A stretch of 64,000 bases of DNA from Escherichia coli (GTDB lineage Bacteria; Pseudomonadota; Gammaproteobacteria; Enterobacterales; Enterobacteriaceae). Each line of letters opens with the position of its first letter. Positions within the stretch are counted from its first letter, which is position 1. A program made the position numbers. Below, piece after piece: positions 18,701-21,700 of this stretch. Where the stretch lies: NCBI RefSeq assembly GCF_050920415.1, contig NZ_CP169309.1, one strand, 5' to 3'.

Positions 18701-21700
18701 GGTCGTGTACTTCACTGAATCGCCACCGCCGCCCATCATCAGGCCGCGTGCTTCCTCCAGAAAATTCAGGAACTGGCAAAACTCAATAACCGGATCCGTC
18801 TGTTGCTTTATTGCCAGTGCTTCATCACCGTCACGCTGTTCAATGAGTAAAGCCCGTGCCTTTTCAGGGTCGGCAAAGTTCGCCAGCAAGCGGCGGATAA
18901 TGACAGGGATTTCAGCCGCGATCTTTTCCGGTAGCTCCCTGTCTTTTTCTGCCTCGCTTACGATGTTATCGAACCGGAATATCACCCGACGACGTGCCAC
19001 ACCTCCGGCCCGTTCGGTGAATATCATCGGATTGTTATTGGTTGCCAGCACCACCGCCCTGATTACCGCCGTAAAACGCTTTTCATATTTCGGGTTAATT
19101 TCCACGGGGTCGCCGCCCGTGATTTTCTTGATGCCCGTTCCTTCGCCTGTATATTTCTGCTGGTCTGCCAGGACGATAAGACGACTCCCGACAACCTGCG
19201 CACGCCCACCAGCATCATCAAGCGATGTCATTTCAGCGCTTACCGTGTTTTGTTTCCCTGCCAGAAGGCTGGCTATGTGTGTGAATGTACTTTTACCGCT
19301 CCCGCCGTCTCCGGTGGCCTCAATAAACATCTGCCAGTCGTACCGGTTCGCCATAATCATGTACAGCGCGGCACATATACGCATCATCTTGCTCGGGTCT
19401 TTTCCGGCTGCGTGCTCAAGCCATTTATGAAAGTTTGGCGCGTTATCGCGGATGTTCTCCCCGGGTGCTGGTGGCGTGTACTCAATGCCGTTGTGCGTGG
19501 TGATCCAGTTCTCCGGCGTGTGCGGGGAAAATTCCCCCGTTTTCAGGTCAAGCGCACCATTGGCGAACGGCAGCAAATCGCCGGACGGCTCGCCCATTGG
19601 TTCGGCAATAACTTTTAACGCTTCCACGGCGTTATTGATTACGCGCTTGCTGAAAGTGGCCCTGTGCTCTGAATAGATAGCCACCATTTCGCGGCTCAGC
19701 TCCATTGTGCTGACCGGACACCATACCCCGCCGCGCCATACGTGAACGATTTCACTTTCAGGATGCACACAAACGCCATCAAAGCGCTCGGCAAGCAGCT
19801 GCGCGCGCTCACTGTCTGCCATTTGTGCCAGTTGCGTATTTTTCTGCTCCGGCATGGTAAGCCCTGCGGCAATATTTTCACGCTCAGCATTCAGATAGCG
19901 CCGCCAGTTTTCACACTTCTGGACGTGCATTCCTTCGGGGTAAAAATTTGCGTCCTGAATATCTGCCGCCGCCAGCTTCTGACCAATCTTTTTGGTCTCC
20001 ACCAAATCCAGTTCTCCGGCCTGGTACAGCCTTACGCGCTTTTTCCCATCCGGAACAATTTTCAGTGCATCAAGTTCGGCAAGCTGATTTGGCCCAAGCC
20101 ACACAGGCGGCACATTATCGCCGGATGCGGGGCCATCCTGCTCCTGCCATTGTTTCGCGTGCGACCAGGCATCACTACCCGCGAAAATAATTACCTCTGT
20201 GTCTTTGTGTTTTATTCCGCGTGGCTGTTTTTTTACGTTCGGTGCCAGTTTCATTTTTTACCCCTGAATACGTTAAGCATCTTTTTTATTTCCTGAATAT
20301 TGGCGCGTGCTTTCTCCCTGCTGGTTGGTTTACTGCGGGGCGCTGCCTGTACCAGAGAAAAATCACGCCGAAACTGATAAACAGGCATCACGCAATCATA
20401 TTCGTAGCCTTCACGACGGTAGGTGATGCGCCGTTCTGCCACGCCTTTAATCGTTACCATGCCGCCATATTTATCGCGGTAAATATCGCCGCGCGTAAAT
20501 TTAGGGTGAGTGTTGCCACTAGCAGTTAAGCCAGAAATTTTCTTTTTCATGGTTTTTATTCCGCGTTTATTTTTTATCGTGAATTTCGATCGCTTTATTT
20601 AATTCGGTGATTACCGTATCGAGTAATGAAATAAACGCACCAGCAAGATTAGATTCACGTTCACCTTCCGGCGCATCACTTAAACCATCAAGCCAGATAA
20701 GCAATATTTGCCGCAAGCATTCACTGTTAGTCAGTGCGTTTTCTGCATGGCTCATTAATTTAAAATAACGGTCATCATGCATGGTGCGCCCCTTGAATAT
20801 CTGCGGTAAGAATTTTGCCTGCCTCATTCAGCGCCATATCAGCACTAAGTTGCATAACCGCCAGCGAATGAGGAACGAAAGCCCCTGCATATTCTGTTTC
20901 ACTGGTGGCGTGCTTATGCGCCATGTCAGCAATAACAGAAATATCAATAAGCGCATCCATCAGCGTTTTGATGGCTTCGGCGGCTGCGTCCGGACGGGGG
21001 TTATTGCACATGGCGCACCTCCTGACGAATACGGGCGGCGAATACCATCACGCAGCCAGCCGGGGATTGCTGGCGGGCTTCCTGTTCGCTGGTGGCCTCG
21101 ATGGTAATCACGCGCGGTTGTGCCGTGCTCAGGGCGATAAAACGCCAGATGTATTTATTCAGGTTGTGCGAATCCCGCCCTTGCGGGTGTGTGGTATGAT
21201 TTCTCATAGCTGCCTCGATACTCTTTCTATCGTTGGTGGTTAGACGCCCTGCATGTGTGCCACCACTGCGGGGCGTTGCGTTTTTTGATGCACACGTGTT
21301 AAGGTGTACACCTACAAAGCAAAAACATAACGCCATAGGTGTACACATGTCAACAGTTATTAAGCGCGATAAAAAACAAAAAGGCACAGGAAAGACCCCA
21401 CCGTTCCATATGCGTATAGTTCCTGAATTGAAGGAGCAGTTTGATAACGAAGCCAGTAACGATGGAGTAAGTCTTGCCAACTGGCTTAAAGAGTTGGGGC
21501 GCGCCGAACTAAAGCGACGCGGCATTGAACCTAAAGGCTGATGTATGACCGATAACAAACTTTCTCTAACAGAGAATAAACCATCAGGCTTCTTACCAAG
21601 AAAAATCCTTGATGAGATCAAACGCCGCCAGCGTAAAAAATCCAAAGGAGCAGACACGGAATAGCTTATGCAACAAATACCATACTGGCTTGGCTCTCTG

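Follow-up and report, generated by a model that had tools for sequence, protein, structure and literature searches.

Arc, the repressor of Salmonella phage P22 that belongs to the ribbon-helix-helix (RHH) type, acts in the immI region (Arc/Mnt, Pant/Pmnt) from an operator lying between the −35 and −10 elements of the promoter that it represses; opposed promoters overlap there, and Arc limits its own synthesis. Phage-inducible chromosomal islands (PICIs) of Gram-negative bacteria are organized as integrase gene (int), alpA, variable zone, replication zone and late zone (PMC6092414; PMC10111431). Fillol-Salom et al. described AlpA as an activator induced by the helper phage (PMC6092414), and it is treated as the master regulator in the papers on capsid-forming PICIs (cf-PICIs; bioRxiv 10.1101/2022.09.08.507074) and on EcCIMP1 (PMC11773190) as well. 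Immunity of satellite P4 is based on the silencing of its constitutive promoter P_LE by CI RNA, while the late promoter P_LL overrides it (PMC10111431). Here we describe a stretch of Escherichia coli DNA of 64,000 nucleotides (contig NZ_CP169309.1, assembly GCF_050920415.1), hereafter “the window”, which carries a PICI-type satellite with a gene for a 64-aa Arc-like RHH protein (21347–21541, plus strand) and two palindromes in front of it. We consider it probable that this protein is an Arc-type repressor of the leftward operon, which begins with a gene related to the host cell division inhibitor Icd (icd-like) and continues to primase, as well as of its own gene, and that it silences the integrated satellite. 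Arc-type RHH repression is already known as a class of mechanism and the interest comes from the context.

Both palindromes are situated in the gap of 139 bp between the start of the first minus-strand gene (21207) and the ATG codon of the plus-strand RHH gene (21347). The first-pass annotation, made from the sequence alone, took this gap for 140 bp, while both of its gene starts and its 35-bp spacing of the sites agree with the sequence read at 21000–21800, where GGTGTACACC occupies positions 21303–21312 and GGTGTACACA positions 21338–21347, 35 bp from start to start. The first of them, reported there as a palindrome of 10 bp, extends to a perfect 12-bp palindrome AGGTGTACACCT with the 8-bp core GTGTACAC (putative operator O1, 21302–21313). 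The second, putative operator O2 (AGGTGTACACAT, 21337–21348), is palindromic at 10 of 12 positions, and its overlap with the beginning of the RHH gene is borne out, as it covers the Shine-Dalgarno sequence (AGGTG) together with the first two bases of the start codon (ATG, 21347–21349). A repeat finder lengthened the sites to two copies of AGGTGTACAC. Exact copies of GGTGTACAC are confined in the whole 64 kb to this pair, and with one mismatch allowed the 12-mer occurs twice, both times within the one gap, against 0.17 occurrences expected from shuffled sequences. Further operator copies were sought in the island and in the window and none was found, a match with two mismatches inside int at 23999 being at chance level. 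Another inverted repeat, I1 (21272–21285 / 21321–21334), was dropped from consideration, as it is not kept in the other classes of loci described below.

The RHH protein has a disordered basic N-terminal arm (residues 1–18), followed by a beta-strand (residues 19–25, PFHMRIV) and two helices (26–38 and 43–57), i.e. the strand-helix-helix fold of the Arc/MetJ/CopG superfamily, to which it is related by sequence similarity as well. It matched PHROG 228 (“Arc-like repressor”) with E=7.8e-6, and a profile of 10 family sequences found P22 Arc (1b28) in PDB with E=7.8e-4. The top matches registered by Foldseek were all RHH proteins: Arc (probability 0.97–0.99), NikA, CopA, AmrZ, ParG, CopG and PutA. 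The AlphaFold model of the monomer contains helices 26–38 and 43–57, and in a model of the single-chain dimer joined by a linker each copy has a strand at 19–22 and helices at 26–38 and 43–57, with a pLDDT (predicted local distance difference test) of about 90 in the core. The identity given to this gene from the sequence alone is therefore upheld by the PHROG and Arc profile matches, by Foldseek and by the dimer model. A search of phage-collection proteins gave 6 matches, none of them with a functional annotation. In the profile alignment residues 19, 21 and 23 stand opposite Gln9, Asn11 and Arg13 of Arc, which are the base-contacting residues in the structure of the Arc-operator complex.

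Many members of this family bear the name “HicB family antitoxin” in NCBI and UniRef, and the single Pfam match of the window's protein, to HicB (PF05534), is weak and sub-threshold (independent E-value 0.012, residues 20–48). Since binding to palindromes in the promoter that drives them is common among RHH antitoxins, one may suppose that the protein is a type II antitoxin autoregulating a toxin-antitoxin operon and that the palindromes are its operator. We regard this as most improbable. Likeness to HicB is limited to the RHH-type DNA-binding segment: HicB antitoxins have an N-terminal domain (partial RNase H-like) and a HicA partner, while the 64 residues considered here make up only the disordered arm and the RHH fold. 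Neither HicA nor any other conserved partner is present, as the downstream genes are variable or absent and the open reading frames (ORFs) found downstream in the window match no family. Moreover, at every locus O2 falls into the spacer of the opposing promoter.

Relatives of the RHH region were found in about 224 of 5,426 complete E. coli genomes, while the adjoining icd-like leader is present in approximately 1,100 of them. Altogether 37 loci from about 15 genera were compared, among them 12 from E. coli, spanning 66–92% identity, 16 from Morganella, Erwinia, Rahnella, Yersinia, Pantoea, Kluyvera, Xenorhabdus, Trabulsiella and Buttiauxella, a 15-kb satellite from Pasteurella that bears the name “phage Pmp8” in its database record, and seven prospective loci picked for new or repeated beta-strand motifs (Klebsiella, Aeromonas, Edwardsiella, metagenomes). 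All 37 have the same layout: a GC-rich hairpin with a run of T, O1, a spacer of 19–23 bp, O2 at or over the start codon (ATG, TTG or, in one case, CTG) and TCA ACx as codons 2 and 3. The sites take the form (A)GGT-N-NN-N-ACC(T) with an 8-bp core GT-N4-AC. The 8 bp adjoining the start codon have an exact copy, direct or inverted, 31–35 bp upstream at 32 of the 37 loci; in the control with cores taken from other classes exact recurrence was registered in 6 of 1,108 cases, with 2.5 mismatches on average. Related islands that retain the RHH gene were thus seen to retain the palindromes as well, contrary to the loss that would have refuted the first-pass proposal.

At least eight different cores were distinguished, and which of them a locus has goes with residues 19 and 21 of the beta-strand and not with the helices. 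The motif P-F-H-M-R-I (H21) is accompanied by GTGTACAC, Q-F-R-M-R-I (R21) by GTGACCAC or GTGGTCAC, i.e. GTG(AC/GT)CAC, Q-F-K-M-R-I (K21) by GTGGCCAC, A-F-Q-V/I-R-I (A19/Q21) by GTGTGTAC, T-F-Q-I/V-R-I (T19/Q21) by GTACGTAC, L/M-F-N-V-R-L/I (N21) by GTATAGAC and I-F-S-M-R-L (S21) by GTATGGAC. The FHMRI protein of Yersinia similis, the helices of which are 89% identical to those of a Pantoea FRMRI protein and 73% identical to those of the window's protein, has the operator of the window, and two TFQIRI proteins with only 43% identity in the helices have the common core GTACGTAC. Within the FHMRI class, represented in four genera (Escherichia, Morganella, Yersinia, Edwardsiella), O1 is unchanged though its flanks diverge, and the long invariant blocks are only GTGTACACCTA and ATAGGTGTACACATGTCAA, that is the operators and the −35 element. 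Five of the seven prospective loci turned out as predicted and two were ambiguous. As the cores keep to residues 19 and 21 even where the rest of the protein differs, the beta-ribbon of this family may be expected to bind DNA in a sequence-specific way. The proposal that the two palindromes are cognate operators of the adjacent RHH gene gains from the comparison too, as both sites change together and in step with the beta-strand.

Pasteurella Pmp8 (L039 4900–5190; OR544139.1, 15.3 kb) encodes an RHH protein of 44% identity with the beta-strand QYQMRL. It has the sites ATGGTAATTACCAT and AGGTATATACCAT 31 bp apart, TTGACA in codons 1–3, the hairpin with the T-run, an alpA-like gene and primase. 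Deposited as a phage, it looks like a PICI-type satellite.

Together O1 and O2 also make a perfect inverted repeat of 11 nt (GTGTACACCTA / TAGGTGTACAC), the arms of which were placed by the repeat finder 21 nt apart. The repeats might then be the two sides of an RNA stem, with O1 pairing to O2, or sites for another factor, such as AlpA, the integrase or an excisionase, or a host protein; AlpA-type proteins bind DNA near int and alpA genes. We find this very unlikely. The transcripts predicted from the two promoters of the gap contain one site each, the sites of the R21 class are direct, and the non-palindromic centre occurs in both orientations even within one class, which fits a symmetric protein dimer and not RNA pairing. 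The correspondence of the cores to residues 19 and 21 across different scaffolds speaks against this reading too.

The consensus scan of the region 20900–22500 revealed one promoter, designated P_L, of the sigma-70 type and on the minus strand. Its −35 element TTGACA (21348–21353) is present in all 37 loci and is separated by an 18-bp spacer from the −10 element TATGTT (21324–21329), so that transcription is predicted to start near 21317. A position-weight scan found TTGACA-17/18-TAnnnT as the best match at the same position of each of the 37 loci, with scores of 10.6–15.7 bits; the score in the window is 13.1 bits, which is attained by 0.5% of random 190-nt windows. The interior of the −10 element varies among the loci, while T1, A2 and T6 are kept (TAnnnT or close to it). 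Codons 1–3 of the RHH gene (ATG TCA ACx) encode the −35 element, which explains the invariant Met-Ser-Thr at the beginning of the protein. O2 fills the spacer between −35 and −10 elements of P_L, and O1 lies at about +5 to +16 of the leftward transcript. A site in the −35/−10 spacer occupies the position of a repressor's operator.

The candidate promoter of the RHH gene itself, P_R, has −35 TTGCGT (21276–21281), an 18-bp spacer and −10 TAAGGT (21300–21305) on the plus strand with a predicted start near 21312, and we assign it to the RHH gene with moderate confidence. Almost every locus has TTGnnT-17/18-TAnnnT at this position, for instance TTGCTT-17-TATGGT in Pmp8. The −10 element of the candidate P_R overlaps the left half of O1, while O2 would occupy +26 to +37 of its transcript, over the Shine-Dalgarno sequence and the start codon. 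The two predicted promoters stand face to face with starts about 5 bp apart. The gap, which the first-pass annotation described as a divergent promoter of classic layout, does not hold a back-to-back promoter pair, since the −35 element of P_L is inside codons 1–3 of RHH and the predicted promoters face each other. The outer half of O2 breaks the palindrome exactly where the start codon A/T-T-G is required; in the R21 and K21 classes RHH starts with TTG. In Pantoea sp. 1.19 (L022 2480–2510) O2 is a perfect palindrome AGGTGACCACCT, the usual start codon became CTG and an ATG is located two codons downstream. This case shows how the symmetry of the operator and the start codon conflict.

A conserved GC-rich hairpin followed by a run of T occupies positions 21244–21286 (plus strand; its homologue lies, for example, at 762–808 of L008). 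It reads as an intrinsic terminator of the plus strand, where no gene precedes it, and at the same time belongs to the 5′ leader of the leftward operon. Compensatory changes were observed at 7 of its 11 pairs, and the TTG of the candidate RHH promoter comes from the sequence flanking the hairpin on its 3′ side. The homologue in EDL933 was called a plus-strand terminator as well, and no Rfam family matches the hairpin. The hairpin could insulate the RHH promoter, stabilize the leftward mRNA, or end a short RNA antisense to the icd-like start. An extended −10-like sequence TGGTATGAT was noticed at 21192–21200. As the promoter-like matches upstream of the hairpin are inconsistent among the loci, a short plus-strand antisense RNA ending there is named only as a possibility. 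The rightward RHH transcription unit is closed by another site resembling an intrinsic terminator (22050–22077, plus strand).

Coding capacity of the opposite strand had to be weighed too. An ORF of 367 aa spans the region on the minus strand of the window (21001–22104), and the Prokaryotic Genome Annotation Pipeline calls minus-strand “hypothetical proteins” of 221–247 aa in L006 (759–1424) and L008 (759–1502); in the EDL933 island RefSeq omits the RHH gene starting with TTG and calls the antisense ORF of 247 aa instead. Were the long antisense ORF a real gene, the RHH ORF would be its shadow. The ratios of nonsynonymous to synonymous substitution rates (dN/dS) are close, 0.097 for RHH in sense and 0.148 for the antisense frame, and since the two frames share the wobble position this is a weak discriminator. 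Codon-position tests discriminate weakly as well, so the coding strand was decided by homology and by the integrity of the ORFs. In 29 of 29 loci the RHH frame is uninterrupted, whereas the antisense frame contains stops in 7 of 29 and bears a pseudogene flag in L007, L009 and L010; the antisense product matches nothing, while RHH resembles Arc in sequence and fold. We therefore give almost no credence to the antisense gene, which is probably a shadow ORF.

Based on this anatomy, its conservation and the covariation of sites with protein, the following course of DNA binding, repression, autoregulation and lifting of repression can be proposed. At each 12-bp site an RHH dimer would place its two-stranded beta-ribbon (residues 19–25) in the major groove. 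The outer GT/AC of the 8-bp core, which does not vary, may be recognized there by the likewise invariant Arg23, and the variable central 4 bp by residues 21 and 19. Bound to O2, the dimer would occupy the spacer and the edge of the −35 element of P_L, which appears to be a strong constitutive promoter, and bound to O1 it would sit just downstream of the P_L start. Occupancy of the operators should turn off the early/replication operon with the icd-like and primase genes. The same two sites cover the −10 element of the candidate P_R, the ribosome-binding site of RHH and its start codon, and in this way RHH may limit its own synthesis; P_L and P_R, facing each other, would not be occupied simultaneously. 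A homologue of a cell-division inhibitor and replication genes that stand behind a strong constitutive promoter have to be silenced in an integrated element, and the RHH module would hold the replication operon silent as long as the island stays integrated. Infection by the helper phage would presumably lift the repression by way of AlpA or of a helper factor, for instance through leftward transcription driven by AlpA, which would run antisense through the RHH gene. In our opinion the earlier notion that an autoregulated repressor controls the replication operon is the best reading of this region, while the word “lytic”, applied to that operon, is loose for a satellite that is not a phage. A role as “master switch” of the island is at most a possibility, since the regulator required by experiment in related E. 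coli PICIs and cf-PICIs is the activator AlpA (PMC6092414; bioRxiv 10.1101/2022.09.08.507074).

A number of facts weigh against the repressor reading. The published key regulator of these islands is AlpA and not a repressor (PMC6092414; bioRxiv 10.1101/2022.09.08.507074), and most of the islands with this icd-like leader have a different small gene in the position of RHH. The candidate P_R scores weakly, 6.9 bits, which is about the random median. At three loci O2 contains no Shine-Dalgarno sequence, and the distance between centres of O1 and O2, 31–35 bp, corresponds to a non-integral number of helical turns. The cores of O1 and O2 differ by 1–2 bp in 5 of the 37 loci, and in the two ambiguous prospective loci, VFPLRI and PFQIRI (the latter outside an island), the difference amounts to 2 bp. 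Finally, the operators and the beta-strand codons are only about 60 bp apart, and this linkage accounts for part of the covariation; it is no explanation for two separate sites changing to the same sequence.

Some of these facts suit another distribution of roles, in which RHH is a local brake that fine-tunes or insulates P_L, and AlpA alone decides upon induction. It differs from the repressor role preferred here in rank only, the mechanism being the same, and we hold it for a possible though less favoured variant. AlpA is required for induction and transfer of EcCICFT073, EcCIEDL933 and EcCIMP1 and activates the downstream genes (PMC6092414; 10.1101/2022.09.08.507074; PMC11773190), RHH has no sensor domain and is found in only about 224 of the approximately 1100 E. 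coli genomes that have the icd-like leader. Opposed to this, the strong conserved P_L is fully covered by operators in 37 of 37 loci, and islands without RHH have an analogous small gene and palindromes in the same place, so that the position of a repressor seems to be general.

Three E. coli islands of this latter kind (L014 1560–1760, L015 1560–1750 and L016 1560–1760) carry in the position and orientation of RHH a 59-aa gene of the YlcI/YnfO family. They have three intergenic palindromes GTGTTnAACAC (GTGTTGAACAC-type), or GTGAATCGCAC in L015, and one of the palindromes is situated in the spacer of the leftward promoter TTGACG-17-TAAATT. Profile comparison of the RHH and YlcI/YnfO proteins detected no homology, and the latter gene is treated here as a positional analogue only. 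The position appears to be a swappable repressor/operator cassette bordering the “dynamic zone” of PMC10111431.

Turning back to silencing of the integrated satellite by RHH, its surroundings may be considered. The element itself is recognizable by its sequence as a PICI-type satellite of about 10.5 kb in the tRNA-Pro gene region of E. coli, with integrase, AlpA-like helix-turn-helix (HTH) regulator, primase, capsid gene and attachment site, as expected for Gram-negative PICIs and cf-PICIs, which measure about 10–15 kb and occupy a specific site. The gene order int – alpA – RHH (plus strand) – icd-like … primase (minus strand) is common to the window and the related islands. The attachment site is tRNA-Pro (24293–24366), followed leftwards by the integrase (22830–24089, minus strand) and the AlpA-like HTH regulator (22109–22315, minus strand), which is convergent with the RHH unit. 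The first leftward gene beyond RHH encodes the Icd-like (host cell division inhibitor-like) protein (21001–21207, minus strand; NCBIfam NF033153, E=1.5e-19; PHROG 6196), and the rest of the early/replication operon (18506–21011, minus strand) consists of two small ORFs, DUF4222 and primase-helicase. Farther on are the gene of a ClpP-like prohead protease/major capsid fusion (15414–17303, minus strand) and that of a PerC-family regulator (14036–14407, minus strand); repression of LEE1 has been reported for the PerC homologue found in another PICI (PMC11773190). The island of the window, with PerC and the protease/capsid fusion and without portal or terminase, matches a classical PICI and not a capsid-forming one. 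Rfam matches to immunity RNA of the C4/CI/IsrK type were absent from the whole window at the gathering threshold, and none appeared even at E≤10 in the region 20900–22500.

Over 411 bp around the sites the window is 100% identical to E. coli strain 08-00022, where the locus is placed between yejO/narP and tRNA-Pro/yejM. RefSeq lists there integrase, HTH regulator, a small plus-strand hypothetical protein (which is RHH), Icd-like protein, DUF4222, primase, ClpP-protease/major-capsid fusion and PerC-family regulator, and the window carries the same set of genes. Full identity to this strain (L001) is restricted to the regulatory region, and the small ORFs and primase (18500–21100) differ in length. 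The island is thus mosaic around the RHH module. Its cargo 3′ of RHH also varies: two small ORFs of 39 and 54 aa in the window (21545–21832, plus strand; no match to PHROG or NCBIfam families), an ORF of 158 aa, a SWIM zinc-finger protein or an ORF of 241 aa elsewhere, and none in E2348/69 (compared in L002 1126–1602, L009 1087–1443, L012 1072–1797 and L013). The product of the 54-aa ORF has a hydrophobic N-terminus. In the quiescent island this downstream cargo would be expressed from the repressor's promoter.

The island of EDL933 (L008, L035, L036) has int, alpA, the RHH module (FRMRI/GTGACCAC, start codon TTG) and primase, together with the complete set of capsid, protease, portal, connector and terminase genes, about 15 kb in all between roxA and phoQ. 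The unannotated RHH ORF lies there at about 1682612–1682803 of NZ_CP008957.1, on the complementary strand. This fits the description of EcCIEDL933, the prototype cf-PICI, so that the RHH module, as a concrete candidate, is available in an experimentally tractable element. Studies that take AlpA for the sole master regulator leave without explanation the silence of a strong constitutive promoter that precedes a cell-division-inhibitor homologue and replication genes. No description of an RHH repressor in PICIs was found in the open literature, subscription journals being outside the search, and RHH is a good candidate for the repressor which, according to the literature, is not found in these elements; it would plausibly account for the silence of Gram-negative PICIs and cf-PICIs. 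More tentatively, and with less than even confidence, the RHH family may supply the repressor still missing for a large part of the Gram-negative PICIs and cf-PICIs, EcCIEDL933 among them, with at least eight orthogonal “immunity types”, specificity set mainly by residue 21 (H, R, K, Q, N, S) and by residue 19, and induction achieved by override, either through AlpA-driven antisense transcription or through a helper anti-repressor. Annotation gains from the analysis as well, since RHH has been labelled HicB antitoxin or missed in favour of an antisense ORF. In addition, the loci provide a natural series of small repressors and their operators; along it the choice of the central 4 bp in the 8-bp site appears to be reset by one or two residues of the beta-strand. 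The series may be useful for studies of RHH recognition and possibly as a source of orthogonal parts for synthetic biology.

By location the RHH gene resembles that of the master repressors Stl and Rpr of staphylococcal pathogenicity islands (SaPIs) and Gram-positive PICIs, which lies between the integrase and replication modules and is opposed to the replication operon (PMC6092414). RHH has just this place between the integrase side and the replication side and just this orientation. The presumed role is alike too, namely to keep the island silent until the helper phage comes (PMC6092414). Stl differs in being a large HTH repressor with a domain bound by a helper-phage protein, while RHH is a bare 64-aa protein without homology to Stl. 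Satellite P4 is similar in that a constitutive early/replication promoter is kept unproductive and a helper-activated promoter upstream, near an alpA-like gene, can override the block (PMC10111431). It differs in using RNA (CI/seqA) and premature termination, while control at the locus studied here is apparently exerted by a protein at the promoter and no C4/IsrK RNA was found.

With regard to recognition of DNA the nearest parallels are MetJ and Arc. One RHH dimer of MetJ reads an 8-bp palindromic metbox by its symmetric beta-ribbon, and the same reading of 8-bp boxes fits the core GT-N4-AC. MetJ differs by its tandem adjacent boxes and co-repressor, since the boxes here stand 31–35 bp from each other and the protein lacks a ligand domain. 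P22 Arc is like RHH in fold, in detectable sequence similarity and in the alignment of its contact positions with residues 19, 21 and 23, and the arrangement proposed here would repeat that of Arc: a small repressor, an operator between −35 and −10 elements of the target, opposed promoters and self-limitation. Arc has one operator of 21 bp, to which it binds as a tetramer, and its gene shares a transcript with ant, which it controls. The locus of the window, in contrast, has two separate 12-bp palindromes 31–35 bp apart, a repressor gene opposed to the controlled operon and the −35 element of the target within the first codons of the repressor itself, and it belongs to a satellite rather than to a phage.

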